In this document: positions 5,311-38,737 of the stretch, piece after piece
Layout: every line of letters starts with the position of its first letter
Numbering within the stretch: position 1 is the stretch's first letter
Notes under the pieces: generated by a model
What the model saw: the letters and a program-made list of their open reading frames with translations, nothing else
Database searches by the model: none
Told to the model about the DNA's origin: nothing
Made by a program: the position numbers and the translations under genes
Source: Solirubrobacter soli DSM 22325
GTDB lineage: Bacteria > Actinomycetota > Thermoleophilia > Solirubrobacterales > Solirubrobacteraceae
Length of the DNA: 40,000 nucleotides
Reading direction: 5' to 3'
Assembly (NCBI RefSeq): GCF_000423665.1
Contig: NZ_AUIK01000001.1
Span: 360,669 to 400,668, forward strand

Positions 5311-5340
5311 GGCGTGACTCTAGTCCGGTTCAATAGGTCG

Positions 5341-6072
5341 ATGTCGTTGGCGCGTGTCCGTGAGGCCACCCCGGAGCTGGACCGCCCCACGACCGTCGCG
5401 CCCGCGCTCGAGTCCGCGCCCCAGGTGGTGCTCAGCCTCCAGCGGACCGTGGGCAACGCGGCCGTCTGCCGCTTCCTTGCCCGCCAGCCCGCGCCGACGC
5501 AGACGAACACGGCTGCGCCCGTCGCGAAGGTCGGGGTCGTCGGCGGCAAGCGCCCGGCGATCACGGAGACATCAAAGAGCTTCGACGACTGCAACGCCGC
5601 CGTGGCATGGATCAACTCCGGCGTCTACACCGGCGAGGCCCAGCCCGTCTACAAGCCGACCGCCGGCAAGATCCGCCACAAGAAGCTGCCCGACGGGACC
5701 CAGCAGGGCGAGGTCGACATCACCTGGGCCTACGACAGCTCCTCCACCGCCGAGGTGATCGTCCCGACCTGGCCGGACATGACCGACGCCGACAAGGCGG
5801 CCGTCGCCAAGTACAAGTCCGCCCTCAAGGCCCACGAGGTCATGCACTTCGACGTCACCGACAAGGTCGTCAAGGCACTCCCGAAGACCGTCACCGCGAC
5901 CGGCAGCGACCCGGCGGACGCCACCACGAACCTCCAGAACGAGGTCAACACCTATCAGTCGGACGCCCAGACCGCGATCGACACCGCCACGACCGACTAC
6001 GACACGCTCACCGGCCACGGCGCGAAACAATCCGCGGTGGGCGGCGTCGACGTGCATCTCGCCTGCCCATAG
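5341..6072 (+). CDS. hypothetical protein with 'LQRxxGNxAVxRxLARxPAP' leader and HExxH motif (putative Zn-peptidase-like)
   Basis: 243 aa from the ATG at 5341, in frame with the 4684..6072 ORF whose upstream part is antisense to the SDR gene. The leader is 'LSLQRTVGNAAVCRFLARQPAPT'. 'LKAHEVMHFD' contains HExxH. Confidence 0.6.
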   Translation: MSLARVREATPELDRPTTVAPALESAPQVVLSLQRTVGNAAVCRFLARQPAPTQTNTAAPVAKVGVVGGKRPAITETSKSFDDCNAAVAWINSGVYTGEAQPVYKPTAGKIRHKKLPDGTQQGEVDITWAYDSSSTAEVIVPTWPDMTDADKAAVAKYKSALKAHEVMHFDVTDKVVKALPKTVTATGSDPADATTNLQNEVNTYQSDAQTAIDTATTDYDTLTGHGAKQSAVGGVDVHLACP

Positions 6073-10896: not shown

Positions 10897-11256
10897 CGGT
10901 TCAGGTGCATTGCTTGGTGATCGCCGAGCGTGATGACGGCCTCGTCACGCGCTCCGTGCTGCGCTCGCGAGCCTGACTGCTCGGTCCGAGAAATCGGCGT
11001 GGTCGCCGACAGCAGGGGCGAACTCTGCCGCGCTGCGACGACTAGAAGCGTGATCCTCGCACTTCAGCCACAATCTTCGAAGTTTCCAGAGCCGTGGCTC
11101 AACTCGCACAGCCGACTGGCGTGCCGCGCACCGGTTTTCCGCTCCATGCGGGATGAACCCTCCACGCGACCCCCGATCCGTCCGCTCCCCCTCGTACGGT
11201 GCTTGCTCGTGACTGGTCCTGACGCCCGTAGCCACGATCTGACGCTGGAACCGCTG

Positions 11257-11472
11257 ATGTCAGTTGATGACGTCGCGAAGTTCCTCCGGATCTCAGAAAG
11301 CGGCGTCTACCGCCTCACGCGAAGCGGCGAACTGCCGCGGGTCAAGGTTGGGAATCGCACGGTGTTCGACCCCGCCGACGTACGCAACTTCGTCGCGTCG
11401 CGTCGATGCGTGGGGTCGTCTGGCACCGGAACATTCGATGGGAAGACGTCGGGAGGCGTAGGCGATGAGTGA
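11257..11472 (+). CDS. small excisionase/MerR-like HTH (HTH_17-type) DNA-binding protein
   Basis: 71 aa from the ATG at 11257. '[46 protein letters not shown]' matches the 'lt..eaA..lgvs..tvyrl...G.lp..k.G.r..f....l..f' pattern. The 3-prime end overlaps the queC start by 8 nt. Confidence 0.75.
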
Positions 11473-12169
11473 TCGGAACGCAGTCGTGCTGCTCAGCGGG
11501 GGACTCGACTCCGCCACCGTCCTCGCGATCGCGCAGGACGAAGGCTACGTCGTGAACGCCCTCTCGTTCAGCTATGGACAGCGTCACAGCGTCGAACTCG
11601 ATGCGGCGAAGACGATCGCGACGCGTGCGGGCGTCACTCGCCATGTCGTGGCCGATATCGATCTCCGGACGTTCGGCGGTTCCGCGCTCACGTCCGAGAT
11701 CGAGGTGCCCAAGGGGCGCAGTGACGAGCAGATGGGCGAAGACATTCCGGTGACGTACGTTCCCGCTCGCAACACCATCTTCTTGTCGTTTGCGCTCGCG
11801 TACGCAGAAGTGTCGTCGGCCGACCACGTCTTCATTGGGGTCAACGCCCTCGATTACAGCGGATATCCCGATTGCCGGCCCGAATACATCGAAGCCTTCG
11901 AGCGCATGGCAAACCTGGCGACACGGCGCGGCGTCGAGGGCCACGGCCTCACGATCCATGCCCCCCTCCAACACCTCACCAAGGCCGAAATCATCAAGCG
12001 AGGCGTCGAACTCGGGGTGGACTACAGCCTGACCCTTAGCTGCTACGACCCCGCGCCGGACGGTGCATCCTGCGGAACGTGCGACGCTTGCTCCCTGCGT
12101 CTCCGCGGGTTCGCTGAGAACGGTCTCGATGACCCAGCGGCGTATGTTGCTCAGCGAGAAGCTGCATGA
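11465..12169 (+). CDS. queC: 7-cyano-7-deazaguanine (preQ0) synthase QueC
   Basis: 234 aa. It has the PP-loop '[12 protein letters not shown]', the string 'SFSYGQRH', and the C-terminal Zn cluster '[21 protein letters not shown]'. Confidence 0.93.
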
Positions 12170-12927
12170 CGGCGCCTACGACGCTGACACCGCGGGGCCA
12201 CGTCCGCGAGAAGACGTTTCCGATCATTGAGATCTTCGGCCCGACGATCCAGGGCGAGGGCGCGGAGGCGGGACTTCCCACGCACTTCGTTCGACTCGGC
12301 GGATGCGATTACCGCTGCTCGTGGTGCGACACGATGTACGCGGTCGATCCGGAGACAGTCAGGGCGACTGCGGTCTCGATGTCTTCGGACGGTATCGCGG
12401 AGCGAGTAGACCAACTTTCTGGACGACCGGACTGGGTCGCGATCAGCGGAGGGAACCCCGCTCTCCATCAACTCGACGGTCTCGTGGAACTTCTTCACGC
12501 CAGGGGATACCGGGTGTCCGTCGAAACGCAAGGCTCGCTTTGGCGAGATTGGCTTCACATGGTCGACCGTCTCACGATCTCCCCCAAGCCTCCAAGCTCC
12601 GGGATGTCATCCCCAAAGCATCTCGATCAGTTCAGCCGTTTCATGCGTCGCGCCATCGCGCGCAAGGACGTGCCCGCGGTGCTGAAGATCGTCTGCTTCG
12701 ACGACGTCGACCTCGACTGGGCGACGGAGCGCGCTGCCGAGTACCCAGATCTCCCGCTGTTCCTGTCCGCTGGCACGCCGGTGCCGGCAGTAGACGGTCT
12801 CCGCGACGCCGTAGGCATTCGCTATCGGTGGCTGTGCGAGCGGGTCGCCGAATCGCCCGCACTCTCAGCCGCTCGGGTTCTTCCACAGCTGCACGTCATC
12901 GCTTGGGAAGGAGCGAAAGGCGTATGA
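12166..12927 (+). CDS. queE: 7-carboxy-7-deazaguanine synthase QueE (radical SAM)
   Basis: 253 aa. '[34 protein letters not shown]' contains the Cx3Cx2C radical-SAM cluster. There is an ATGA overlap with queC at 12166-12169. Confidence 0.92.
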
Positions 12928-13358
12928 ACCCGATCACTGCTGATCTGCATCAGGCCCGCCCCGCAAACGGGAGCGGATCGCCTGTCCGAACGCGCACGGA
13001 AATCTTCAAGGAGTTCACGTTCGAGGCAGCTCATCGCCTGCCGTTCGTCCCAGCCGAGCACAAGTGCTCACGGCTACACGGACACAGCTTCAGCGTCGAG
13101 ATCCATGTCTCCGGAGAGGTCGATCCCCGAACGGGGTGGCTGATGGACTTCGCGGACATCAAGACAGCCTTCAAACCATTGCTCGATCGGCTCGATCACT
13201 ACTACCTCAACGAGATCGACGGGCTCGAGAATCCGACGAGCGAGAACCTCGCTCAGTGGATCTGGGAGCGGCTCCAGCCGGCCCTTCCGGAGCTCAGCAA
13301 GATCGTCGTTCGCGAGACGTGCACCTCCGGGTGCGTTTACGTGGGGGGCGAGGCGTGA
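12924..13358 (+). CDS. queD: 6-carboxy-5,6,7,8-tetrahydropterin synthase QueD
   Basis: 144 aa from the ATG at 12924 (ATGA overlap with queE). The strings '[10 protein letters not shown]', '[15 protein letters not shown]' and 'DHYYLNEI' are present. Confidence 0.92.
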
Positions 13359-14152
13359 ATCCGCTCGCAGCCCTCGACCTAGAAGACGTCCAGAATCAAA
13401 CCGACGACCGCGGAGTCGCGATCGACCAGGTCGGGATCGCGGATCTGCGGGTGCCGCTCCGTGTCGCTGGCCGAGACGGCAGCGTCCAACAGACGATCGG
13501 GACCATCGAGATGGACGTGGACCTCGCGGCCGAGGTGAAGGGCACGCATATGAGCCGCTTCGTCGAGGCGCTCGTCGAACAAAACGGCCCGCTCGATGGA
13601 CCCGCGGTCGTCGCACTTGTCCACGATGTTCGAAGCCGGCTCGGCAGTACCCGAGCTCGGGTCAGTATGCGCTTCCCGTACTTCCTCAGCCGCTCAGCTC
13701 CGGTCACGGGTTTCGCCGCACCGGTCGACTACGACGGCACACTTCTCGCCGAAGCCGGACCTGTCACATCGCTCACGCTTGGCGTCCGGGTCCCGATCAC
13801 GAGTCTTTGCCCTTGCAGCAAGGAGATCAGCGACTACGGCGCCCACAACCAACGCGGCTACGTCGAGATACAGGTTCGGAGCGACGGCGAGTCGGACTTG
13901 TGGCTCGAAGACCTGATCGATATTGCGGAGGCGGCTGGCTCAGCCCCGATCTTCGCGCTGCTCAAGCGACAGGACGAGCGGCACGTGACGATGCAGGCGT
14001 ACGAGACGCCCGCCTTCGTCGAGGACATCGCCCGAGATGTCGCCGTAGCGCTTCGCAGCGACGCACGAATCGCCGGCTACGTCGTCCGAGTGACCAATCA
14101 CGAAAGCATCCACAATCACTCGGCCGTGGCCACGATCCGAGGCGGCGTGTGA
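13355..14152 (+). CDS. folE2: GTP cyclohydrolase I type 2 (FolE2/MptA family)
   Basis: 265 aa from the GTG at 13355 (GTGA overlap with queD). The strings 'GTHMSRF', '[23 protein letters not shown]' and '[12 protein letters not shown]' are present. Confidence 0.9.
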
Positions 14153-14796
14153 GCGAAGTGGTCAGGCGCGTCCACGTCGTGACGTCGTGCACCGCCCTCA
14201 AAGTCGACACGCGAGTTCCGGTGCCCGCTGAGACCCTCTATCGCGGCCAGCAGCACGTGCGCTTGATGCGCGGGGTGCAACGAGCTCGTGCCTTAGGCGT
14301 CCAGATCGATCTCTCGATCGTGTCCGCGAAGCATGGCGTGATCGCCGGCGACGCCCCCGTCGAGAGCTACGAACAGACGTTTCAAGGCATGGGCGTCGAG
14401 GCGCGCAGAAGTGTCGCTCGCACGCTCGGAATTCCACAAGCAATCCGGACGTCGCTAGACCATCCCTGCGATTTGCACGTCGTGCTTCTTGGGGATGACT
14501 ATCTCGCAGCGTGCGAGCTAGGAGCGGATGTCGCTCCTTCCGCCCCCACGCACCTGTTTTGTGCTGCCGGGTCGGCCCTGGGACTGCCGCGCATGTCCAA
14601 CGTTGCGATCTGGCCCATTCACGTCGAGGACACACGACGCTTCCAGTGCGGATACGTGGCGCTCAAGGGAGAGGTGGGTGGTCGACTTCTAGCGACGCTC
14701 GCCACAGGGCGTCTGTCGTTGGCTGAACTGACGTCCGATCCACTGGCCAAACTGGCATCGGCTGAACGTGATCAACTCGCGCTCTCCGTGGGATGA
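14149..14796 (+). CDS. dpdC: DpdC-like protein (assignment by position and size; candidate preQ0-DNA to ADG-DNA converting enzyme)
   Basis: 215 aa from the GTG at 14149 (GTGA overlap with folE2), located between the preQ0 genes and dpdA. 'VVTSCTALK...PAETLYRGQQ...IVSAKHGVIAGDAPVESYEQTF' resembles the YaaA/DUF328-like 'LSGLYGvl.p.d.i.pYrlem' core. Family membership was not verified. Confidence 0.5.
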   Translation: MSEVVRRVHVVTSCTALKVDTRVPVPAETLYRGQQHVRLMRGVQRARALGVQIDLSIVSAKHGVIAGDAPVESYEQTFQGMGVEARRSVARTLGIPQAIRTSLDHPCDLHVVLLGDDYLAACELGADVAPSAPTHLFCAAGSALGLPRMSNVAIWPIHVEDTRRFQCGYVALKGEVGGRLLATLATGRLSLAELTSDPLAKLASAERDQLALSVG

Positions 14797-16060
14797 CATT
14801 GTGCGCTTCTATTTCCCCGACAGCCAAGACCAGGTCGATCCGAGTTTCGACTTCCTCACTGAAGAGCGTTCGCCGTTCAGGATTCGGCAGCGCGACGACC
14901 TATACGCGCACGAGGTGCTCGATCCTGTCCCGTACACCGGCATGCTTGTCTCGAAGGCGATGGTCGACGGTGTCGATGGCGGCGCCGGCCGATACAGCGC
15001 CCAGCAACGGCAGCGGCTCTATCGAGTCGGGATCCGTGAGTTCTTTCGACTTAACACCCCGGATCGGGCGCACATCGAAACGATGGGCGACTGCGGCGCG
15101 TTTACCTACGTTCGCGAAGACGTGCCCCCGTACAGCGTCGACGATGTCATCGATTTCTATGAAGGCTGCGGATTCGACGCCGGCATTTCCCTCGACCACG
15201 TCATTCTCGGGTTCGAACTGCACGCGCCGCTAAGCGCGGATTTCGTTCCTGAGGACTGGTCTCAGCGCCGGGAACTGACGTTGCAACTCGCTGCGGACTT
15301 CCTCCGTCGCCACGCTGAACGTGGCTGCTCATTTCAGCCGGTAGGCGTTGCGCAGGGATGGAGTCCCGAGTCGTACGCGGCGTCCGTCGAGGCACTGCAG
15401 AAGATCGGCTACGGCCGGATCGCGCTCGGCGGGATGGTGGCGCAGAAGACCCACGAGATCCTCGCCGTGCTGCACGACATCGACGAGATCCGAGATCCGG
15501 CGACCGAACTCCATCTGCTCGGGATCACGAGAACCGAAAGCATCCCGGAGTTCGCCTCTTACGGAGTCACGAGTTTCGACAGTACGTCCCCGTTCCGTCA
15601 GGCGTTCAAGGACGATCGGGACAACTACCACGCCGACGAACGGACTTTTCTCGCGCTGCGCGTGCCGCAAGCCGAAGGAAACGTGAAGCTGCAGCGACGT
15701 ATTCGGGCCGGCGAGGTCGACGGCGCCCTTGCGCGGCGCCTCGAGCGTCGCGCGCTGGACACGCTCCGCTCGTTCGATGCGGGTCGCGCTACCGTCGATG
15801 ACGCGGTCGAGGTCCTGCGCGACTACGAGCGATTGCACGACGGTAAGCGAGATCGCTCGCACGCCTACCGCGAAGTGCTCGAGAGCGCACCGTGGAAGTC
15901 CTGCGAGTGCGCCGTCTGCCGCAGCGAATCGATCGAGGTAATCATCTTCCGCGGGACGGAACGCAACAAGCGGCGCGGATTCCACAACCTGACCGTCTTC
16001 GCGCGACGACTCGAGCGTCAGCTCGGGCAACCCGAGTCCCTGGTCCCGGCGGGAGCATGA
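14768..16060 (+). CDS. dpdA: DpdA, tRNA-guanine-transglycosylase-like DNA transglycosylase (TgtA5 type)
   Basis: 430 aa from the GTG at 14768. An in-frame GTG at 14801, 5 nt after the upstream stop, is an equally good start. The strings 'FYFPDSQDQVDPSFDF', 'MGDCGAFTY', 'ISLDH', 'IALGGM' and 'TSFDSTSP' are present, with the TGT-type Zn site 'CECAVCRS...x22...FHN'. Confidence 0.88.
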   Translation: MINSRSPWDDIVRFYFPDSQDQVDPSFDFLTEERSPFRIRQRDDLYAHEVLDPVPYTGMLVSKAMVDGVDGGAGRYSAQQRQRLYRVGIREFFRLNTPDRAHIETMGDCGAFTYVREDVPPYSVDDVIDFYEGCGFDAGISLDHVILGFELHAPLSADFVPEDWSQRRELTLQLAADFLRRHAERGCSFQPVGVAQGWSPESYAASVEALQKIGYGRIALGGMVAQKTHEILAVLHDIDEIRDPATELHLLGITRTESIPEFASYGVTSFDSTSPFRQAFKDDRDNYHADERTFLALRVPQAEGNVKLQRRIRAGEVDGALARRLERRALDTLRSFDAGRATVDDAVEVLRDYERLHDGKRDRSHAYREVLESAPWKSCECAVCRSESIEVIIFRGTERNKRRGFHNLTVFARRLERQLGQPESLVPAGA

Positions 16061-17211
16061 TGCCCAAATCCAAGAAGTCGCGCGCCGAGTTTCGAGTCCC
16101 CGCGCTCGCGATCGAGCAAACCAAGGGACGTACGCTGTACAGCTTCGCCGTCGACGGCAAAGCGCTTCCTGCGTTCGCTGCGGTGTCGCGTGTCAAGCGC
16201 GAGGCGAATCACGAGCTCGCTGGCTATCAGCGCGCAGAGTCCGTCGCGCACATCCGCACGATTCGGAAATACCTCGAGTCGGCGGACGCGATGTTGCCAA
16301 ATGCGCTTGTCGTGGCCTTCGACTCGAGCGTTCGATTCGAGAGCGACGACTCGGACGATGCGCAGACCAGGGTCGGGCATCTCGTGATTCCGATTATTGA
16401 AGGAGCCACTGAAGCCGAGAAGCCGGGATGGATCGTTGACGGTCAGCAGCGCACTGCCGCGATTCGCGAGGCGGAGATCGAGGATTTCCCGGTCTACGTC
16501 ACAGCGTTCGTCACGGACAGCGTCGCCGAGCAACGCTCGCAGTTCATCCTCGTCAACTCGACTAAGCCCTTGCCCAAGGGTCTTATCCACGAGCTCCTGC
16601 CTGCGACGCCAATCGGGGATCTCCCCCTCCTGCTGCTGAAGAAGCGCTACCCGGCCGTTCTACTCGATCGGCTGAATTACGACCCCGACTCGCCGCTCAA
16701 TCGTCGCATCCGGACACCCACGACGACCGAAGGAACGATCAAAGACAACTCGGTCCTTCGCATGCTCTCGATGAGCATCGAAGACGGCGCGCTGTATCAG
16801 TGGTTCGATCCGGAGAGCGGGACTGGCGACACGGACGCGATGTTGACGCTCGTCAAGAACTTCTGGCATGCGGTCGCGAGTGCCTTCCCGGACGCCTGGG
16901 ATCAATCGCCGCGCCGGTCTCGACTGGTCCACGGCGTGGGAATCGTCGCACTCGGGTCGGTCATGGACGAGATCGCGTACAACCTCCGCGAGGAGGGCGT
17001 CCCAACGGCGCGTCGCTTCGAGGAGCAACTCGCGCTGATCGAACCCCTGTGCAGGTGGACGCGCGGAATCTGGGATTTCGCTCCAGACGATCAGCGCCGG
17101 TGGAACGAACTGCAAAACACCCCCCGCGATATCAAGTTGCTGAGCGACTACTTGGCTCGTGCGTACCGGCGGGAGGCGACCGGTTCAACCAACATTGCCG
17201 CCGCGGCTTGA
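16057..17211 (+). CDS. dpdB: DpdB, DGQHR/DndB-family ParB-like (ATPase) partner of DpdA
   Basis: 384 aa from the ATG at 16057 (ATGA overlap with dpdA). The strings 'LAGYQRAESVAHIRTIRKYL', 'GWIVDGQQRTAAI' and 'QFILVNSTKPLPKGL' are present. Confidence 0.85.
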   Translation: MMPKSKKSRAEFRVPALAIEQTKGRTLYSFAVDGKALPAFAAVSRVKREANHELAGYQRAESVAHIRTIRKYLESADAMLPNALVVAFDSSVRFESDDSDDAQTRVGHLVIPIIEGATEAEKPGWIVDGQQRTAAIREAEIEDFPVYVTAFVTDSVAEQRSQFILVNSTKPLPKGLIHELLPATPIGDLPLLLLKKRYPAVLLDRLNYDPDSPLNRRIRTPTTTEGTIKDNSVLRMLSMSIEDGALYQWFDPESGTGDTDAMLTLVKNFWHAVASAFPDAWDQSPRRSRLVHGVGIVALGSVMDEIAYNLREEGVPTARRFEEQLALIEPLCRWTRGIWDFAPDDQRRWNELQNTPRDIKLLSDYLARAYRREATGSTNIAAAA

Positions 17212-29227: not shown

Positions 29228-31785
29228 CAGGTCTGCTGAAGGAAGTGCTCGATACGAGCGACGTTGGAGTGGTAGCGCTCGACAAGTTCGCGACCGTGCC
29301 GCGGATCGATCGCCGATTGGTCGACAATGATGACGCGAGGAGGCCCGATTGCGTCGAGCAGGTATGGCTCGGGGTCATTCCGAAGACGCACCACCGCGGT
29401 CGGGAGACTAGGCGCGTTCCACGGCAACCAATCTGGTTCATCGAACACCACACCGTGGGGCGCCAGACGATGGAGGTCGACGAACTCTCCCTTCATGTGC
29501 CCGGAGTCGAGCACCCACAGTCCTCGCGCCGCCAGCGTCCGAATCGCTTGCCTAACGGTGGCGTCATCTCTCGGGTCCGCGAGGAGCACGAGGGGTTCGC
29601 GGACGGTCATGGACGAGAGCCAACTCGCGCGCCATCCGTGATGGTCCCCGCCGATCGTACAGCGAGGCGTCGGGTACTCAAGTTGGCGCGGGGCGCAGCC
29701 AAGCCGGCGGCATCCAGGACAGCCACCGCATGACTGCGCCACGACAATCGGCAACTCGATGTCCATCGACGGAATTGGCCGGTCGATGACGTACGTCGAC
29801 CGAAGCAAGGCGCAGATTCGCGCGTGTCGCTGTAGGGCGCCCCGCATGGCCGCGTGCGCCGCCTCGTCTTCCGAGTGAGCCCGATCCCGAACCGAGACGA
29901 CCGCGGACGCCCACAATTCGTTGTCGTCAGTTGATCGACGAAGGTGGACCACAGCGCTCGCTGTGTGCTCTTCGAAGGCACTGTCTGCACGCGCGGCCCA
30001 GGTATCCTCGTCTTCACCGGACTGTCGTCGTGGTGGTGCCTGAGACTCGAGCGATAACACGCCGGCGCGGTGGAGCAGCAGCAACGTGCGGAGGTTCCAC
30101 GCGCGATTCCTGTCGGAGTCGATCTCGAGGTCTGACGGCATGGCGGTGAGGGGTATTCGCATGCGACCCTCCGGAAGAGGAGTTCGCTCGGCGAGCATCG
30201 CATCCCATCGTTCGCGTCCGCGGTCGATCGAAATGATCTTGCGCCGCGAGAGTTCTCGGGCAACCTGCAGGTCGGTGTTCGAAGCGATCATCATTGCGAC
30301 GGAAGGCTCGCCATCACGCCCGCCGCGACCAACTTCTTGATACCAGCGGTCGAGTGTCTCGGGCACGCACGCGTGCACTACCGACCTCACATCGGGTTGA
30401 TCCACGCCGAGTCCGAACGCGGACGTGGCGATGACTAGGTCCAACGATTGGTCCCGCAACCGATCGATCGCCGCCCGTCGCTCGGCGGCGGAACTCCGGC
30501 CCGTGACGACGTGGGACCGCCGCCAGCCGAGTTCGAACAGGTCCCGCTGAAGCTCACGGGCATCAACGACCTTGGTCGTATATACGATCGCTGGACGAGG
30601 TAGGTGCCGCAGCGCGTCAATGACGCGTCGCCGCCGCTGGTCAGAGTCGCCGACCAGGCTGACCCAGTAGCTGGGCTCGTGTCGGAGCGCGGCCGAGGAG
30701 ACGACGGTGGTCGGTCCTGGGTTCCCGAAAAGCACACCGAGGACGTCGAGACTGTCCTGCGTGATCGTGGCGCTCAGGAGAACGGTCTGAAACGGCTGCC
30801 GACCATTGGCTCGGCACACCGCGAGCAAGTCCTCCCGCAACCCTGCTATGGCCTGAAACGCCGGGCGGAATTCCGCGCCCCACTGAGCCACGACGTGAGC
30901 CTCGTCGACGACGAACGCATTCAAGAGTCCTCGCTCCGCCGCGAGATACAGCGCAGAACTCAAGCCTGATGCGACTGCCTCAGGGCTCACGAACACGATG
31001 CCCTGGGAACCGTCGGCTACGCCGGAACGGATGTCGCGCTTGGCCTCGTCAGTCAACTCTGCGTGATAAGCGAGCTCGAGAGGAAACGCTCGCGCGTCAG
31101 TCCGGTTCGCAACCAAGTCCGCAAACGCACGGGACTGGTCGAGGGCGAGTGAGGTAGTTGGAATTACGAAGACCGTGGTGCCTCGAGCCTTCGTCAACGC
31201 CTGCATGTAGCCGACCGTGCTCTTGCCGGACCCCGTGGGTAAGTTCGCGACAAGAGTTGCTCCGGGGACGGCAGATGCAGCCCACCGGATCGCAGCCCGC
31301 TGCCCGAGTGAACGGTAGCTGCGCCTTCCAGTGGCTTCTCTGAAGAACCCGTCAGCTCGTAGATTCTCCGACTCGCGATGCGTGTGCTCATTGCTACCGC
31401 GGAATGCAGCCGCGGCAGGATCCTGTTGGCCGTCAAGCCAGTCGGGACGCCAGGGGTTCGCCTGCACACGTAGGCGCTCTGCGTCAGTACCCACGACGTC
31501 AAATCCGAACAGCCTCCATTCAGCGGCGGTCGGCCAAGGCTGGGCAATCGGAGTGGCCAGGTTGAACAGGGTCTGTGTCATCTCGGTCTCCGCCCGAGCG
31601 ACGTGTCTCAATAGAACGGCGAGGTCCGCGGCGCCCACGGAAGCCGTATCGCCGGCAGCCGCCCGCATCGCCAGCAGGAGCCGCCGAGCACTCGCAGAGA
31701 GAGTCGCTGGCAAGGGCGAATCTTCAGGCCATCTTGCCAGCGCGTTACGGACTGAGGCGAGATCGCCTGGGTTCAACCCGGGCAT
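29227..31785 (-). CDS. dpdF: DpdF-like RecQ-type DEAH helicase
   Basis: 852 aa from the ATG at 31785 (TGATG junction); the track ORF extends to 31824. Motif I is 'NLPTGSGKST'. The RecQ signature is 'FVVDEAHVVAQWGAEFRPAF'. 'LLSATIT', 'ATSAFGLGVDQPDVRSVVH' and 'YQEVGRGGRDG' are present, with the C-terminal Cys cluster 'SCGGCPGCRRLGC'. Confidence 0.8.
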   Translation of the reverse strand: MPGLNPGDLASVRNALARWPEDSPLPATLSASARRLLLAMRAAAGDTASVGAADLAVLLRHVARAETEMTQTLFNLATPIAQPWPTAAEWRLFGFDVVGTDAERLRVQANPWRPDWLDGQQDPAAAAFRGSNEHTHRESENLRADGFFREATGRRSYRSLGQRAAIRWAASAVPGATLVANLPTGSGKSTVGYMQALTKARGTTVFVIPTTSLALDQSRAFADLVANRTDARAFPLELAYHAELTDEAKRDIRSGVADGSQGIVFVSPEAVASGLSSALYLAAERGLLNAFVVDEAHVVAQWGAEFRPAFQAIAGLREDLLAVCRANGRQPFQTVLLSATITQDSLDVLGVLFGNPGPTTVVSSAALRHEPSYWVSLVGDSDQRRRRVIDALRHLPRPAIVYTTKVVDARELQRDLFELGWRRSHVVTGRSSAAERRAAIDRLRDQSLDLVIATSAFGLGVDQPDVRSVVHACVPETLDRWYQEVGRGGRDGEPSVAMMIASNTDLQVARELSRRKIISIDRGRERWDAMLAERTPLPEGRMRIPLTAMPSDLEIDSDRNRAWNLRTLLLLHRAGVLSLESQAPPRRQSGEDEDTWAARADSAFEEHTASAVVHLRRSTDDNELWASAVVSVRDRAHSEDEAAHAAMRGALQRHARICALLRSTYVIDRPIPSMDIELPIVVAQSCGGCPGCRRLGCAPRQLEYPTPRCTIGGDHHGWRASWLSSMTVREPLVLLADPRDDATVRQAIRTLAARGLWVLDSGHMKGEFVDLHRLAPHGVVFDEPDWLPWNAPSLPTAVVRLRNDPEPYLLDAIGPPRVIIVDQSAIDPRHGRELVERYHSNVARIEHFLQQT

Positions 31786-34700
31786 CAGTCGTCTTCGACT
31801 ATGAGTAGCGCCACGCTGCTCCATCTCGCAACCGGCGCTCGCAGAGCGGCGAGTAGGGCATCGTCGACCCGTGCTGCCACGTCTGCCGCACGACCCGCCG
31901 CTTCCTCGCCGCGACGATGTCGCAGCCGCAGACGTGCGACTCGTTCGCCCCAGGCAATCCTTGCCTGCGCCGTCGCGGACTCGATGTCGCCGCTGGCGTG
32001 GCTCCGCTCCACGGCGACATTCGGCGCACGTCTCCGAACCGTGGCGAAGTACTCATTCGCGGTCGTTGCGCCCAGGAGAGCGCCGAGGTCGCGAGTGCTC
32101 TCAGACGTCCACTCGCTGGTCGCTTCTGGATCGGCGAGTTGTCTCTCCAGTACCTCGATCCATTCTCGGTCTGTGATCACTTCCGCGTTCTCGTCGAACC
32201 ACAGCGTTAGGGCTTGAGGCGGCAGGAACGCGTCGACGCGGCGCTGCAATGCCGCAACGGCAAGAGCCGCGTCGGCATCGGTCCGGACCTCTCCGCGATT
32301 CGGGCGTTCGCGTTCGGCATGCTGCCACGCGTCGAGAGCATCGGTCGGATCCGCGGCGACCACAAAATCCGCGCGCACCGCTGCGGTCGCGGTTGTGCCT
32401 CTCATACGCGCAACAAAAAGTTGGCAAGACTCGTCCCAGTCGGCCTGCTCTCGCAGCAGTTCCACGATCGGGTCCCCCGGCAACATCAGCGCCGCGTCCT
32501 GCCCATCAACCGCACGCACACGTGACGAAGTCCACGTCCCTCCGCCTGGCCTACAAAGAGCGCGGAAGTCTGCCGTAGCGCTCGTGGTCCGGCCGACGGT
32601 CACACCGACCGTGATCCCGTCGCCGAGTCCGAGCTTCAGGTCGAGCGCCGGCCCCACCACCTCGCTTAGCTCGCACGAGGCGTCCAGCAGAGAGGTCGCA
32701 TGTGACGTCTCAGCGTCGATGACTCGATCGATGAAGTCGTCACTGCGAAGGTCCGTCTGGGCCAGCAGATCGAACTCGTCGAGTCGGTCGATCCGGCGCT
32801 GTTCCTCCTCGACCTTAAGGCGCAACGCACCTACGGCGTCTTCAGCCCCGCCATTCGGAAGACCATCGAGGAACCACGCCCTGCGTTGCTCCATCTCCAC
32901 GGCCTCGATCGCAAACATCGTCGAGGACGTCGAAGCCCGAAAGACGCCAAACACGTCGCTCAGGAGCGCCAGCCACGCTTCCGCGAATCCTTCGTTCGAC
33001 CACATGAACACTCGACACTGAACAGGCCCCGCAACGCCGCCGTGCCGATCCGCGCGCCCGATGCGCTGCTCCACGCGACTCGTCGCTCGTGGGAGGTCCG
33101 CGTGGACGACCGTAGTGGCATTCTGCAGATTCAGTCCCTCCTCCGCTGAGGCATCGCACACGAGCGTCGCGATGATGCCGTCCCGGAAGGCAGTCAGCAC
33201 CCCCCGGCGTTCGTCTCGGTTCAGATCAGCAGTGAGCGCTTCGACGCCTCCAGGGGACAAGACCATCAGCTCGTCGCACAGGAGTTGGGCGGTCGACGCC
33301 GCGGAAGTAAAAACGACTGTCGGCCCGTCACACGCGCTGGCAACTGCGCGAGCGAGTACGCGAATCTCGGCGGCCTCGTCGGGATTGCCCTCGAAGTCGC
33401 GTTCGGGCTCGAGAAGTCGGATCACTTCGTCCAAAGCCTCTCGGATCTCCGGTGTCGTTTCGACCGCTTTCAAGGCGCCGCGGGCCGCGAGATCGATGCC
33501 TGACCGCGCGAGATGCTGGCGCCGAAGAGTCGTCTTATAGAGCGCTGCGTGACGGAGGCACTGCAAATCGCCGGTCGACGCCTGCACGAAGCACCAGAAC
33601 GCCTCGGCGTAGATGCTGATCCATTCCTCGCCGCGGTCATTTGCCGCACTCACGAGAGCCGCCCGCAAGTTCTCAAGCCATCGTTCGACTTGAGGGCGCC
33701 TCGGGTCCGCCTCAAAGACTGCCGGCGCGAGAGATCGGCCCCGAACGTCGTACAGCTTTCCAGCGATGCCAGCCCGTCGGTTGCGGATGAGGCGCGCATG
33801 AATGCGATACGAGTCCGTCAGGTGCCCACGGACCTCGGCAAGGCCGAGTTCGCGGGATCCATTCTCCGCACCGACATCGATCACTGAAATCAAGGCACCC
33901 AATTCCCGATCCTCAGGGAAGTTCTCTCGGATGTCGCTGAGCGCTCCATCGAGGAGAAACGGTGGTGTATCTGGACCGATCGAAAGGAAAAGTCGCCCGA
34001 TTTCTTCACGCCGGCGAACCTTCGCTTCGAAAGCTTCAAAGTCGTCGAGACGAAACGTGTCGGGATCGAGAAGGTGGAGCATCGCGAGCAGATCCCTCTC
34101 GCGATTCAAAACCGGCGTAGCGCTGAGGAGCAACACCCGTGCTGCTTCGTCGGTCAACTTCTGGGCAAGCGCGTACCGCTCGGCTTCCTCTTTGACCCGA
34201 GAACCCCAGCCGGCAGCGATCCTGTGGGCCTCGTCGATCACGACGAGGTCCGGGACCTGCAAACGCTTCCAGGACCGGTCGTCCTCGTGGGCGGCGACCT
34301 CGATCCCACCTTGTCGGAACCAATGGAGCCCGAGTCGATCCTCGAGTTCATCTTGCCATTGAGGAACCAGTTGCGATGGAACCAAGACGACAACCGTCGA
34401 ACGCGGAGCGTCAATCAATCGCTGGCGAATGAGAAGCCCCGCCTCGATCGTCTTGCCGAGGCCGACCTCGTCGGCAAGCAGGTAGCGCTGCACAGGGTCG
34501 TCCAGTACTCGGCGCACAACGTCGAGCTGGTGCGGGAACAAAGACACCGGCGCCGAGAGCACGCCCGACAAACCGCGCTGCGCGGCTTTCAGCTTGTAGT
34601 AGCCGGCTAGGAATGCCCGCCGCTTCTCGGTCGCGTCGCGGTCACCGGCGAACCCGGCCGACAACAGCGCAAGCGGATCTCGCACGGGACCAAAGTCACG

Positions 34701-35558
34701 CACCCGCACGGCGTCTTTCTCGACGCGTCGGATCGCGCGGCCGGGTCCGACCGTGACGTGCGAATCCGACGCGCTATTTACCGCGCCGCGCGACCAGCCT
34801 TCTCCGACGTCCTCCCACCACACGATGTCGCCGCGAACAAGCGCGTGAGAGCTCGCCGTCTTCGACGGGATCCGCACAACTTCGACGTCATTCCCTGGTC
34901 CGCGGAAGACCTCCACGTCGTAGGACTGGCCCACGGTTTCTTTGATGCGCCCCACATGGGAGGCCGGCGTATGAAATACGACATCCTGTTTCGCGTCGTA
35001 TCGCGGCATTGCAGCACTAGCGTCTGTACCTTGCGCACGCCCTCCGCACGCGCGGCACCGCTTCCAAAAGTCGCCCTCGTCGCCGCGGTTGCGCCGCAAC
35101 CACCGGACGGCGTCGCGTTCGTCTGACGCGTAGCGCAGGCTGACGTACTGGCCCACGGCCCCCAACCACTTGCACCCGGAGGCGTGCAAGACACTGGTTC
35201 GCTCGGTGTCTCGCGCGTAGTGGTCAACCAGAACGACTCCTCCCTGGGCGCGAATCGCGCTCAGATCCTGTCGCCGGAACTGTCGGAAGGTGCTGTCGTC
35301 AACCAAAGCGGGCATAGCTCTCAACTCGTCCTGCGCGCCGCGGTTCACGGCTCGCGGCACCACATCATCATGCCTGAGTGATCGGACTGTCCAACCCGGA
35401 CCTCCATCCCACAAACGTGCGATTAGTCTCTCGACAGAAACAAGCGCGGCAACCCAACGTTCGTCCAGTCTCCAGCAGCCAGCTGTGGGAAATCTGTTCA
35501 TAGCGATATCGCATGCGGACCAACGCTTTGTCGTTCGTATCCCTACGGTGCGCAGCAA
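31785..35558 (-). CDS. dpdE: DpdE-like SNF2/RapA-type helicase, first gene of the restriction operon
   Basis: 1257 aa from the TTG at 35558, or 1238 aa from the ATG at 35501. The strings 'LFPHQLDVVRRVL', 'LLADEVGLGKTIEAG', 'LVVIDEAHRIA', 'LLLSATPVLN' and 'GLNLQNATTVVHADLPRATSRVEQRIGRADRHG' are present. The region before the ATPase core looks Tudor/SH3-like. Confidence 0.8.
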   Translation of the reverse strand: MLRTVGIRTTKRWSACDIAMNRFPTAGCWRLDERWVAALVSVERLIARLWDGGPGWTVRSLRHDDVVPRAVNRGAQDELRAMPALVDDSTFRQFRRQDLSAIRAQGGVVLVDHYARDTERTSVLHASGCKWLGAVGQYVSLRYASDERDAVRWLRRNRGDEGDFWKRCRACGGRAQGTDASAAMPRYDAKQDVVFHTPASHVGRIKETVGQSYDVEVFRGPGNDVEVVRIPSKTASSHALVRGDIVWWEDVGEGWSRGAVNSASDSHVTVGPGRAIRRVEKDAVRVRDFGPVRDPLALLSAGFAGDRDATEKRRAFLAGYYKLKAAQRGLSGVLSAPVSLFPHQLDVVRRVLDDPVQRYLLADEVGLGKTIEAGLLIRQRLIDAPRSTVVVLVPSQLVPQWQDELEDRLGLHWFRQGGIEVAAHEDDRSWKRLQVPDLVVIDEAHRIAAGWGSRVKEEAERYALAQKLTDEAARVLLLSATPVLNRERDLLAMLHLLDPDTFRLDDFEAFEAKVRRREEIGRLFLSIGPDTPPFLLDGALSDIRENFPEDRELGALISVIDVGAENGSRELGLAEVRGHLTDSYRIHARLIRNRRAGIAGKLYDVRGRSLAPAVFEADPRRPQVERWLENLRAALVSAANDRGEEWISIYAEAFWCFVQASTGDLQCLRHAALYKTTLRRQHLARSGIDLAARGALKAVETTPEIREALDEVIRLLEPERDFEGNPDEAAEIRVLARAVASACDGPTVVFTSAASTAQLLCDELMVLSPGGVEALTADLNRDERRGVLTAFRDGIIATLVCDASAEEGLNLQNATTVVHADLPRATSRVEQRIGRADRHGGVAGPVQCRVFMWSNEGFAEAWLALLSDVFGVFRASTSSTMFAIEAVEMEQRRAWFLDGLPNGGAEDAVGALRLKVEEEQRRIDRLDEFDLLAQTDLRSDDFIDRVIDAETSHATSLLDASCELSEVVGPALDLKLGLGDGITVGVTVGRTTSATADFRALCRPGGGTWTSSRVRAVDGQDAALMLPGDPIVELLREQADWDESCQLFVARMRGTTATAAVRADFVVAADPTDALDAWQHAERERPNRGEVRTDADAALAVAALQRRVDAFLPPQALTLWFDENAEVITDREWIEVLERQLADPEATSEWTSESTRDLGALLGATTANEYFATVRRRAPNVAVERSHASGDIESATAQARIAWGERVARLRLRHRRGEEAAGRAADVAARVDDALLAALRAPVARWSSVALLIVEDD

Positions 35559-35819
35559 CCGTGCCCGACACCTCGCCGGGCAGGCGTCGGTCGACTAGCA
35601 CCAGTCCTCGTGGCCCGCGACGAACCTAGCGAGCCCAATCCGGTGCTGTATCGCGACTCCGGGCCATCAACTCACCGCCGGTGTCCGCGGCGTGACCATC
35701 GACACGATCGGTGCTGTCGCTGTCGATCCGATCGCCAGCTTAGGGCTCGAGCCGCGCGACCGAGAGAGTCGCCGCGGGGCACGACGCGTTGCGTCGCGCG
35801 TGCTGCCAACCTTGACGCG
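35559..35819. promoter_or_regulatory. divergent intergenic control region between dpdE-like and the DGQHR-HNH operon
   Basis: This is the only sizeable non-coding gap inside the island (261 bp, or 318 bp if dpdE starts at 35501). Short inverted repeats are CGATCGG (35705-35711) with CCGATCG (35728-35734), and CGACGC-GTT-GCGTCG (35782-35796). No convincing -35/-10 boxes were identified by eye. Confidence 0.35.
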
Positions 35820-37244
35820 ATGAGCGACACGACCCAACCGCGTACGTACAAGTACACGGCGTTGCGCGTAGAGCAGCAACCCGGATCCCCGTTGATGTAC
35901 GTCTTGGCAGTTAGCGCCGCACAACTTCTGGAATGGGCCGATGTGCCTAACGCCAAAGCCGACTACATGGCGGGATACCAGCGGGTATACAACGCGGATC
36001 GCGCGCGGTCCATTGCGGAGTTCCTCGAGACCGACCCGAACAACGTTATCCCGGGCGCAATTATTGTCACAGTCGACGCCGACAGCGTCTCGACCCACAG
36101 CAGCGCGGTCCCTGGGGTCGATGACATTGCAATCAATGTCACCGACCGAGCGTTCGAAGATCTTCTCTCTGGGGTCTACGAGACGTTCCTAGCACGCTTG
36201 TCCGACGCGGAGAAGGCCAGTGCTGCCCGTCCTAGCGCGGAATCGGCGGAGGCCGAGGAGTCGGAAGATGAGTCGCCCGAGAACTCTGGAATTCCGGAGT
36301 CGTATCTCGCCACGTTGACAGCAGAACTTCGTGAGGCCCAGGACAACTACAAGTCACTGCCGCCAGAACGCCAGGCAGCGATCCGCAACTACGTCCAGAC
36401 GATGTCTAAACCCGGCCTGATCATCGATGGTCAGCATCGGGTATTTGGAGGGAAGGACGTCGCGAGTCACGACGTGATGCTTCCGGTCGTTCTCTTGCCT
36501 GGATTGCCCGTCGCGGAACAGGTGTTTCACTTTTACGTTCTCAACAATAAGGCAAAGCCGCTTACTCCGACCGAACTTCGGCGGACGATTAGCACATCCC
36601 TTACAAATCAGGAGATCGATGGCCTCTGGGACAGGTTCGAAACCGCCGGAGTCAATCCCGAGGCGACCCGTTGGACGCACAAGATGGACGCTGACCCGTC
36701 CTCGCCGTTTCTCCATCTCCTCGACTTCGGACTCGGCGCGTCGGGATTCCTCAGAGAGAATGTCGCTTTCCAGTTGGTTTCGAAGTTCGTCAACATGCCA
36801 CGGAAATACAGACTGCTTTACAAGGACGTACCTGCCTGGCAGAACCAAAGTGACGAGCGACTTGCCTACTTCTTCACCTTCTGGTCCGCAGTACGCGACC
36901 GCTATCAGTCCACCTGGGATGAGGGCGTCAGAGCCGGCGGAAACCAGTTGTTCATGAAAGCTGGAATGCTCGTACTCCAAGAACTTGTCCTGGACTTCCT
37001 GGTACAGGTGATGACAGTACGTCAGATCGAGGGCAAGCCTTCCCCGTTCGCCGATCGCGACGACCTGGCTGACCTGGTTGTAGCTTCCCTGAAGTACCTA
37101 CCGTCGGAATTCTTCTCGCGCGAGTGGCAAGAGAAGCAACTGGACACAAGTGAGCGCCGAGCATTCTTGCGAGCGCAAATGGAGATAACGATCCGCAACC
37201 AGGGCAAGAACATCGGGAACCAGCAACTGTTCAAGAAGAAGTGA
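35820..37244 (+). CDS. second DGQHR-domain (DndB/DpdB-family, ParB-like) protein
   Basis: 474 aa from the ATG at 35820, in frame with the 35610 ORF. The strings 'YMAGYQRVYNADRARSIAEFL', 'PGLIIDGQHRVFGG' and 'FHFYVLNNKAKPLTPTELRR' are present. An acidic insertion 'SAESAEAEESEDESPENSG' lies between the N-terminal part and the DGQHR motif. Confidence 0.8.
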   Translation: MSDTTQPRTYKYTALRVEQQPGSPLMYVLAVSAAQLLEWADVPNAKADYMAGYQRVYNADRARSIAEFLETDPNNVIPGAIIVTVDADSVSTHSSAVPGVDDIAINVTDRAFEDLLSGVYETFLARLSDAEKASAARPSAESAEAEESEDESPENSGIPESYLATLTAELREAQDNYKSLPPERQAAIRNYVQTMSKPGLIIDGQHRVFGGKDVASHDVMLPVVLLPGLPVAEQVFHFYVLNNKAKPLTPTELRRTISTSLTNQEIDGLWDRFETAGVNPEATRWTHKMDADPSSPFLHLLDFGLGASGFLRENVAFQLVSKFVNMPRKYRLLYKDVPAWQNQSDERLAYFFTFWSAVRDRYQSTWDEGVRAGGNQLFMKAGMLVLQELVLDFLVQVMTVRQIEGKPSPFADRDDLADLVVASLKYLPSEFFSREWQEKQLDTSERRAFLRAQMEITIRNQGKNIGNQQLFKKK

Positions 37245-38086
37245 CGCCGGCGAACTTCGGATCTCTCGAGGCACTCCTGGACCAGCTCGTCGTCACGGCG
37301 AGTCGTGACGTCGAGTCCGAACAGGAACGGTACTACCAGTCAGTCGCGTTCGACCGCGCACTGCGTCTACTTCGCGTAGCCGACGACGATCGGGAACGCG
37401 TCTTGTTCGAGACGCGTTTGCGCCTGGCGCTGCACCTGGCCCCACGCGATGCGATCGCCTACTCTCACGATAATCCTGTGCCTCGATGGCAACTCGTTCG
37501 AGACCACCTCGTGTCTCGGTACGGACGTCCGGCCGAACTCGCTGCCCCAGCCGCTCGTGGAATTGCTGTGGTTCTGGACAACTGGGACCGTGGGCGAGAC
37601 CCGGTGTCGTCTCGACGCGCTCTTCTAATACGGCGACATGGCCCAGTGTGTCGGCACTGCCACGTTCGGTTTGATGTCGAACCGGTCACGCTTGCGCATC
37701 TGGACGCGTACAAGCCGTATTTCCGATCTCCTGAGGAATTGCTCAGCCCTGAGGTCGATCACGTCGAAGCAATCAGCGCGATCGGTACCAACGAACTGCG
37801 GAATCTCCAGTTGCTGTGTCGACTCTGCAACGCCGGCAAAGGCGACGGACTTGGAATGGAGGTTCGTCACGAGGCGGCATTTGCAGGATATTCAGTGGAA
37901 CGGATCCCGACAGCGCATCTGGCCCGGTTAGTCTATTACGTCATCGACCGTGACAATCGGCATTGCACACAGTGCGACCGCGATGACCTCGAACTCACAA
38001 TCCGTCCAATCGTGGATACGGGCGGCGTCGTTCGCTCCAATCTGCGCACCGTTTGCGTCGCCTGTGGTGGTTCGTCGCCGGCGTAG
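37241..38086 (+). CDS. HNH (His-Me finger) endonuclease with second Cys4 module
   Basis: 281 aa with a GTG at 37241 (GTGA overlap with the DGQHR gene stop). 'CRHCH...EVDHVEAISAIGTNELRNLQLLCRLCNAGKGDG' has the CxxC ... DH ... N ... CxxC-N pattern. A downstream module 'RHCTQCDRDDLEL...SNLRTVCVACG' follows. Confidence 0.8.
   Translation: MTPANFGSLEALLDQLVVTASRDVESEQERYYQSVAFDRALRLLRVADDDRERVLFETRLRLALHLAPRDAIAYSHDNPVPRWQLVRDHLVSRYGRPAELAAPAARGIAVVLDNWDRGRDPVSSRRALLIRRHGPVCRHCHVRFDVEPVTLAHLDAYKPYFRSPEELLSPEVDHVEAISAIGTNELRNLQLLCRLCNAGKGDGLGMEVRHEAAFAGYSVERIPTAHLARLVYYVIDRDNRHCTQCDRDDLELTIRPIVDTGGVVRSNLRTVCVACGGSSPA

Positions 38087-38664: not shown

Positions 38665-38737
<73 letters not shown>

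Follow-up and report, generated by a model that had tools for sequence, protein, structure and literature searches.

What is a pair of overlapping genes, one for a DGQHR-domain protein and one for an HNH nuclease, doing in a DNA-modification island whose described gene set, dpdA-K, holds neither an HNH gene nor a second DGQHR gene (PMC5699537, PMC10164549)? The question is raised by a 40,000-nucleotide stretch of Solirubrobacter soli DSM 22325 (contig NZ_AUIK01000001.1, positions 360,669 to 400,668), hereafter the window, which is a high-GC (65%) segment carrying a complete queCDE/folE2/dpdA-K 7-deazaguanine island. In the described Dpd system, DpdA, DpdB and DpdC modify DNA and DpdD-K restrict it (PMC10164549, PMC5699537). 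An earlier, sequence-based prediction (the original prediction) had pointed out the two extra open reading frames, ORF1 and ORF2, and had correctly stated that the described set lacks both. Here, we find that the pair is a recurrent, translationally coupled cassette with at least three sub-architectures, and that it is a dpd-specific, minority accessory within dpd islands. Tentatively, we read it as a restriction component that would act on DNA lacking the Dpd mark. The elements needed first are the following:

35820-37244, + strand: ORF1, 474 amino acids, a DGQHR-domain putative nucleoside triphosphatase (NTPase) of the ParB/DndB fold ('DGQHR2'); WP_028062161.1, a hypothetical protein in RefSeq
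37241-38086, + strand: ORF2, 281 amino acids, a standalone HNH (His-Me finger) predicted nuclease; PF01844 at 40.7 bits (cutoff 21.4)
37241-37244, + strand: GTGA overlap placing the start of ORF2 on the stop of ORF1, a translational coupling
31785-35558, − strand: dpdE; NF041062 at 689 bits

The overlap and the divergent orientation relative to dpdE had both been predicted, and both are found as described. The GTG start of ORF2 lies in ...AAGTGACG..., and RefSeq covers just a 96-amino-acid hypothetical fragment of this gene (WP_371683447.1). A longer version of ORF1 from a GTG at 35610 (ORF 35610-37244) was rejected, as homologues begin at the ATG at 35820.

ORF1 is indeed a second member of the DGQHR family. 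It scores 76.4 bits against the DGQHR model TIGR03187, above the cutoff of 58.85, and the motifs quoted in the prediction are in place. As a DpdB it fails, reaching 69.5 bits on the equivalog NF041060 (cutoff 300) compared with 468.3 bits for the DpdB of the island, and matching the PADLOC DpdB model weakly (73 bits vs 487 for true DpdB). The two proteins are nevertheless collinear, with 23% identity, and can be aligned over ~390 residues. The match to the DndB family PF14072 covers the N-terminal 67 residues and stays below the cutoff (27.5 vs 29.1 bits), and there was no match to TIGR03233 (DndB). Neither ORF1 nor ORF2 matched DUF262 or DUF1524, at E<=0.01 with the whole proteins or at E<=1 with half-proteins. 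The AlphaFold model of ORF1 is confident, with a predicted local distance difference test score (pLDDT) of 89.9. Comparison with solved structures, by sequence profile and by Foldseek, gave no significant whole-chain match for ORF1 and weak ParB N-domain matches only, and among the viral proteins of BFVD the fold neighbours of the model are DndB-like, GmrSD N-terminal-domain and ParB proteins. The ORF1 family comprises at least 252 proteins in a 90%-clustered collection. Within ORF1, we distinguish:

35967-35984, + strand: MAGYQR, the 'QR' motif of DGQHR/GmrS domains; Y53, Q54 and R55 invariant (n = 116 sequences)
36201-36293, + strand: acidic low-complexity loop SDAEKASAARPSAESAEAEESEDESPENSGI, inside a ~100-amino-acid helical insertion (amino acids ~95-195)
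36420-36443, + strand: IIDGQHRV, the DGQHR signature and presumed nucleoside triphosphate (NTP)-binding loop; D203, G204, Q205, H206 and R207 invariant (n = 116)
36525-36563, + strand: FxxxN motif, FHFYVLNNKAKPL; F238 and N242 invariant (n = 116)
36507-37241, + strand: C-terminal domain, all-helical in a high-confidence model, including FxxxN

The nucleotide site of the ParB/DndB fold (QR, DGQHR and FxxxN) is kept in ORF1, which suggests, on conserved residues, that the protein would act as an NTPase. The insertion sits between the QR and DGQHR motifs and has no counterpart in the alignment with the island DpdB, in agreement with what had been predicted for the acidic stretch. Its loop appears disordered, with pLDDT <50 at amino acids 145-158; across the family the loop is variable in length, always acidic, and followed by an invariant P159-x-S161-Y162. 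The C-terminal domain had no Pfam match even at E<=1, and the ORF1 family profile reaches it in family members only, not in generic DGQHR proteins. Since H206 is the sole invariant histidine of the family (n = 116), the C-terminal domain contains no His-Me or EHxxP-type nuclease site.

A candidate catalytic site for cutting DNA is found in ORF2 instead, whose parts are:

37241-37639, + strand: helical N-terminal domain, family-specific, 133 residues in 6-7 helices, high-confidence model; a candidate adaptor to ORF1 or DNA
37649-37849, + strand: HNH core, CxxC...D173-H174...N188...CxxC-N197; C137, C140, D173, H174, N188, C193, C196 and N197 invariant (n = 64)
37649-37660, + strand: CRHC, HNH core motif
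37757-37762, + strand: DH, HNH core motif
37802-37804, + strand: N188, HNH core residue
37817-37831, + strand: CRLCN, HNH core motif
37964-38065, + strand: C-terminal Cys4 zinc ribbon, C242/C245/C272/C275, each at least 90% conserved, with two short predicted strands

These data bear out the predicted intact His-Me finger followed by a second Cys4 module. All catalytic and zinc residues of the HNH family are kept, which points to a functional nuclease. The structural model of ORF2 is confident (pLDDT 92.5). Its N-terminal domain has no Pfam match and no fold match in the PDB; the residues conserved there within the family are R59, R61, L62, H65, P68, A71, R82 and R119. Against solved structures, sequence profile and Foldseek returned no significant whole-chain match for ORF2 and local HNH-core matches only, by fold to the Gme HNH nicking endonuclease (4h9d, probability 0.72) and McrA (6ghc), and by sequence to the HNH domains of ZRANB3 and Cas9. 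ORF2 has 65 homologues in the 90%-clustered collection and 160 strong relatives (cluster representatives at E<=1e-10) among 1.84 billion representatives. The best 150 of these 160 are all standalone proteins of 260-317 amino acids or fragments. PADLOC-DB v2 contained no match to ORF2 at E<=0.001.

Is the pair a peculiarity of this island? We surveyed loci drawn from genome contigs, metagenome contigs, specific encoding contigs and plasmids (numbered L001 onwards), and scored their ORFs with profiles of the ORF1 and ORF2 families and with the HNH motif. Among the clustered homologues, many of ORF1 and of ORF2 lie on contigs of equal length. The scores of ORF1-type proteins form tiers of >390 bits (orthologues), ~250 bits and 95-185 bits, all spanning the full length of the profile, and generic DGQHR proteins, DpdB included, score <70 bits on it and match its C-terminal part less. 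Wherever the neighbourhood is visible, a same-strand HNH gene abuts 34 of the 35 distinct ORF1-type genes. The HNH gene is usually downstream, the spacing is -4 to +23 nucleotides where both starts are unambiguous, and the -4 overlap recurs in related loci. In one proteobacterial sub-type, the HNH partner lies upstream of the ORF1-type gene. We rejected these upstream partners (the MLWKP... family) as full homologues of ORF2, as hhalign aligns the core only (probability 63%) and the N-domains differ. The original prediction had presented the pair as a module bolted onto this particular island, and the recurrence of the pairing does not fit such a one-off event.

The two genes also diverge together. 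Over 25 loci, pairwise identities of ORF1 and ORF2 correlate with r = 0.90, and 0 of 2000 Mantel permutations gave a value as high. This bears on the idea that ORF1 is a DndB-like transcriptional regulator, acting on dpd operons from the dpdE promoter region, and that the HNH gene is selfish or unrelated. DndB, itself a DGQHR protein, acts as a regulator (PMC5699537), and ORF1 diverges from dpdE in the window, so that one intergenic region is common to both:

35559-35819, no strand: divergent intergenic region between dpdE and ORF1, presumed promoter region, which may reach down to ~35364 if dpdE starts later

However, an HNH gene that is coupled to ORF1, co-diverges with it and stands beside it at 34/35 loci does not behave as a passenger. 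Moreover, where the pair lies with respect to dpdE varies between loci, and the intergenic region contains no conspicuous repeat resembling an operator. We therefore regard regulation with a passenger nuclease as very improbable. Simple scans for promoters, terminators and repeats around the pair returned nothing above chance.

Several loci show the cassette in altered form. A metagenome-assembled genome of Stenotrophomonas (L007) carries two different DGQHR-HNH cassettes back to back (9989-12304, +; 12515-14874, −) adjoining dpdB-dpdA-dpdB, with the HNH gene downstream in one and upstream in the other and no dpdD-K visible in the 21 kilobases (kb) viewed. In Mycolicibacterium mucogenicum (L083, 11428-13587), an insertion sequence (IS) element interrupts the cassette and the HNH gene is split, and on an Agrobacterium vitis plasmid (L186, 28018-31030) an IS5 lies between the DGQHR and HNH genes. 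These interruptions could reflect counter-selection or simple decay. IMG/VR held no phage copies of the pair, generic DGQHR matches only.

We then asked how closely the cassette is tied to Dpd. With stringent thresholds, family loci of at least 8 kb and a dpd gene sought within 10 kb, 23 of 27 family loci had such a neighbour, compared with 1 of 88 generic DGQHR loci (Fisher p = 4e-19), and the single positive among the latter is a frameshifted family member. Three of the four dpd-negative family loci have divergent candidates, namely TGT and DUF6884 genes 8 kb away in the Halorussus locus and a DpdJ-like helicase in two brine contigs. The original prediction had raised the question of how often DGQHR-HNH pairs occur and whether they are enriched beside dpd loci; the neighbourhood survey answers with near-exceptionless co-occurrence and strong enrichment. 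The pair spans Actinomycetota, Pseudomonadota and a haloarchaeon. Its hosts include Streptomyces, Mycolicibacterium, Prescottella, Acidimicrobiales, Solirubrobacteraceae, Stenotrophomonas and Terrabacter besides the haloarchaeon, and Bradyrhizobium and Agrobacterium carry it on plasmids. Within dpd islands it is found in a minority: 2 of 17 DpdA-bearing plasmids carry it, and it is absent from the Salmonella-type/Enterobacter-type dpd cluster (L185). No dnd or ssp genes were seen at the survey loci, though no search was aimed at them. In Halorussus litoreus (L086), Beta-CASP/RMMBL genes flank the cassette on both sides (a 136-amino-acid fragment at 9585-9995 and a 410-amino-acid gene at 12304-13536), and TGT, BrxC/BrxD-like ATPase and DUF6884 genes lie 6-9 kb from it.

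This linkage weighs on two further explanations that had been raised in outline at the outset. According to the first, the pair is an independent two-gene defence system that merely shares islands with dpd. In its favour, the two genes shift together with respect to the remaining dpd modules, no dpd gene is visible around one distant pair (L008), and other defence genes such as Wadjet, HipA and AbiE lie near the cassette in some loci. However, the linkage is specific to dpd across phyla and plasmids and does not extend to defence islands generally, and the closest characterised relative of ORF1 is a Dpd protein. Given so tight an association, we give this possibility hardly any credence. The second holds that the pair is a type IV-like, modification-dependent nuclease directed against foreign hypermodified bases, for example phage 7-deazaguanines unlike the mark of the host. 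A ParB-like NTPase combined with a His-Me nuclease is the design of GmrSD, BrxU and SspE, and the viral fold neighbours of the ORF1 model include proteins with the GmrSD N-terminal domain. Yet such enzymes need no linkage to a modification module, and the pair's obligate linkage to genes that install the modification (23/27 vs 1/88 beside dpd) sits poorly with a type IV-like back-up. In addition, a sensor of 7-deazaguanine would endanger a host carrying preQ0/ADG in its own DNA, and the DUF262/DUF1524 matches of that class are missing. We consider the type IV-like explanation improbable.

The position of the cassette inside dpd islands suggests yet another role. It usually sits beside dpdB-dpdA-dpdB and que genes, or else separates the modification module from the restriction module, and in some loci (L001, L015, L087, L101) it is downstream of dpdB on the same strand. 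The ORF1-type gene never abuts dpdA in related loci, and in the window ORF1 is ~19.8 kb from the dpdA end (16060). The dpdB-dpdA-dpdB arrangement, with two DpdB-like genes both named DpdB by the annotation pipeline PGAP, is seen at L001, L002, L083, L085, L090, L186-L192 and L194; the window has one DpdB-like gene at dpdA only. A genome-mining study tallied 801 further copies of dpdB in such islands; it neither characterised them nor paired them with HNH genes, which it mentioned in passing (PMC12235509). The dpdB-dpdA-dpdB arrangement probably explains much of that count.

Could the pair then help to install the mark? ORF1 would be an alternative loader or specificity factor of the DpdB type, and the HNH protein would nick or open DNA for base exchange or set a second target motif. 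DpdB is a ParB-fold ATPase needed by DpdA for preQ0 insertion (PMC10164549), an ATP-dependent step, and ORF1 is its paralogue. The cassette is most often directly beside dpdB-dpdA-dpdB and que genes, and one clade (P0074) keeps ORF1 without an HNH gene right after dpdB. On the other hand, DpdA, DpdB and ATP suffice for preQ0 insertion in vitro and DpdC acts independently (PMC10164549), most pair-bearing islands already hold two DpdB-like genes flanking dpdA, and the pair is present in just ~2/17 DpdA-bearing plasmids. An intact, universally conserved HNH site would also be unexpected in a transglycosylation helper. Overall, we think an accessory role in modification unlikely without being far-fetched.

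Because the pair is almost never found away from mark-installing genes, it behaves as the restriction component of a restriction-modification system rather than as a type IV enzyme. The explanation that we place first, with slightly less than even confidence, is that ORF1 and ORF2 form a split, SspE/GmrSD-like NTPase-nuclease effector, which is coupled to Dpd marking and serves as a restriction arm against unmarked DNA. The two proteins would form a physical complex in which the DpdB-like ORF1 loads on DNA and, by binding or hydrolysing NTP, probes for the preQ0/ADG mark left by DpdA/B(/C). ORF1 would then license the HNH domain of ORF2, supplied in trans, to nick or cut mark-less DNA, giving rise to a defence phenotype. 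No dpdD-K are in view, over the 20-40 kb examined, at L001, L002, L005, L007, L083, L089 and L090, among them the minimal islands of Mycobacterium sp. URHB0044 (L002) and Bradyrhizobium pB41S5 (L090), and other islands, including the window, have the full set. The pair may therefore be the sole restriction arm in the former and an additional one in the latter. In a bolder form of this proposal, which we regard as possible though doubtful, the pair would be the 7-deazaguanine counterpart of SspE and, together with dpdA/dpdB and preQ0 genes, make up a compact, self-sufficient restriction-modification system needing none of dpdD-K.

Several observations speak against a split restriction effector. 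The island of the window already has the full dpdD-K set, including the phospholipase D (PLD)-type DpdK, so that a second restriction nuclease looks redundant. The apparent absence of dpdD-K from many loci is seen in views of at most 20 kb. The preference for unmarked over marked DNA is suggested by the logic of the linkage only. The sole ORF1-type gene without an HNH neighbour belongs to a well-sampled clade (P0074; L087/L088/L093), and the distant pair at L008 has neither a dpd gene within 10 kb nor a candidate in view. Furthermore, no DGQHR-HNH fusion was found in the best 150 of the 160 ORF2 relatives, leaving the proposed complex without Rosetta-stone support; there was likewise none among 120 ORF1 relatives. 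In the P0074 clade, the ORF1-type gene comes directly after dpdB and is followed by opposite-strand genes without a family match.

How does the pair compare with characterised systems? The best functional analogy is SspE, in which a DGQQR ParB-like NTPase is combined with a nuclease; coupled with a module that modifies DNA, it detects the mark and introduces nicks into phage DNA (PMC10164549). Like SspE, the pair joins a ParB-like NTPase to a His-Me-type nuclease and is genetically tied to a DNA-modification module. SspE is, however, one polypeptide, with a DUF262-type N-domain and an EHxxP nuclease C-domain, and deals with a phosphorothioate mark, whereas the pair has a separate HNH protein, an ORF1 C-domain without catalytic histidine, and a 7-deazaguanine mark. 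In work on GmrSD, DGQQR and DGQHR domains were recognised as related and the QR motif was described (PMC4619093). The QR, DGQQR and FxxxN motifs of GmrS are homologous to those of the DGQHR domain, GmrD is HNH-like, and GmrS and GmrD may also be two separate proteins (PMC4619093), as in the pair. In contrast to GmrSD and BrxU, the pair uses the DGQHR/DndB-like ParB subfamily and a classical zinc HNH rather than DUF1524, and it is strictly tied to a modification module, as type IV enzymes are not.

Among Dpd proteins, DpdB resembles ORF1 in having a DGQ(H/Q)R ParB-like N-terminal NTPase domain and a helical, nuclease-dead C-domain, and in residing in dpd islands. The DGQQR motif, required for the NTPase activity of SspE, lies in the ATPase domain of DpdB, and the DpdB C-domain resembles the SspE nuclease domain without EHxxP (PMC10164549). 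ORF1 differs from DpdB in its insertion with the acidic loop, its longer C-domain and its DGQHR signature, where the local DpdB has DGQQR; its partner is an HNH gene, not dpdA. DndB shares the DGQHR superfamily with ORF1, which falls below the PF14072 cutoff and neighbours dpd instead of a dnd cluster. ORF2 has the catalytic core of McrA/Gme-type zinc HNH enzymes (two CxxC pairs, DH, N, N), from which it is set apart by its own helical N-domain, its C-terminal Cys4 ribbon and its obligate DGQHR partner. DpdD-K, with DpdK as a PLD-type nuclease candidate, belong to the same island and plausibly to the same restriction phenotype; the pair has no homology to them and is also present in islands where they are not seen. 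The individual roles of the Dpd restriction proteins and the identity of the nuclease have been stated to be an open question (PMC5699537, PMC10164549).

The pair is not described in any paper that we found, nor by any Pfam, NCBIfam or PADLOC model; on the eleven NCBIfam/PADLOC Dpd models, ORF1 had sub-threshold DpdB matches only and ORF2 none. The claim that the module is undescribed thus holds for the pair, and has to be qualified for its DGQHR half in that extra dpdB copies had already been counted in bulk (801, PMC12235509). The names dpdL and dpdM have been given to phage genes and do not refer to the pair.

The remainder of the island and its borders are as follows:

11465-17211, + strand: modification module with queC, queE, queD, folE2, dpdC (DUF6884), dpdA and dpdB, from NCBIfam equivalogs and domain matches
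12999-13358: queD, PTPS at 133.5 bits; the ORF overlaps long folE2/dpdA ORF calls
13807-14796: dpdC, DUF6884 at 33.5 bits; the ORF overlaps long folE2/dpdA ORF calls
15892-17211, + strand: dpdB of the island, NCBIfam NF041060 at 468.3 bits
17521-35558, − strand: restriction module with dpdD, K, J, I, H, G, F and E, from NCBIfam equivalogs
38665-38737, − strand: tRNA-Thr(GGU), found by ARAGORN, ~580 nucleotides past ORF2

NCBIfam equivalogs identify DpdA (582 bits), DpdB, QueC, QueE and FolE2 in the modification module, and with the overlapping queD and dpdC ORFs included, both the preQ0 pathway and the dpdA-K set of the island are complete. The equivalogs of the restriction module all exceed their cutoffs, DpdI excepted (21 bits). 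The dpdE ORF has a ~190-amino-acid N-terminal extension beyond the DpdE profile (34965-35558, −), with a Cys/His-rich stretch (...HASGCKW...CRACGG) and no Pfam match; its start is uncertain, and a second gene caller puts it at ~35363.

The tRNA-Thr is the probable right boundary of the island, which would place the ORF1-ORF2 pair at the island edge. Genes beyond it are housekeeping ones, including a DAO-family oxidoreductase and a dihydroxy-acid dehydratase. A search of the rest of the window for att-type or direct repeats matching the tRNA-Thr end was negative. An ORF2 homologue (P0164) appears to run on into tRNA-like sequence, and this read-through suggests the same tRNA-edge placement in a second genome. 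At the left edge, immediately 5' of queC, an HTH_17/excisionase-family gene (10930-11472) encodes a protein that also matches, weakly, the antiphage HTH of MADS1, and in the related locus L087 QueC carries a fused HTH_17 domain. Just outside the island, a 1459-amino-acid ORF (6517-10896, +) has no significant Pfam/NCBIfam match; near it lie a gene for a DUF922 protein (4684-6072) and a TetR-domain ORF.

Together, these results show that what was noticed at one locus is a conserved cassette specific to dpd, whose products may act as an ATP-driven nuclease reading the 7-deazaguanine status of DNA. Of all known restriction-modification systems, Dpd is said to be the largest and most complex. By comparison, the cassette is small, at two genes and 2.3 kb, conserved and specific to dpd modification genes, and it holds the sole classical nuclease active site in many dpd islands that are 'restriction-less' as viewed. 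Its genes are annotated as 'hypothetical protein' or 'HNH endonuclease' and ORF2 is mis-called, so that finders of defence systems miss the pair, which is of interest to researchers of Dpd and of defence systems. If it is a counterpart of SspE, it would be the first nuclease shown to tell 7-deazaguanine-marked from unmarked DNA. With dpdA/B and two genes in place of eleven, it offers a tractable system and may show how a ParB-fold NTPase senses base modification. If the proposed mechanism is true, the combination of ParB-NTPase and His-Me nuclease known from GmrSD, SspE and BrxU would be extended to a split form and to a third DNA mark.

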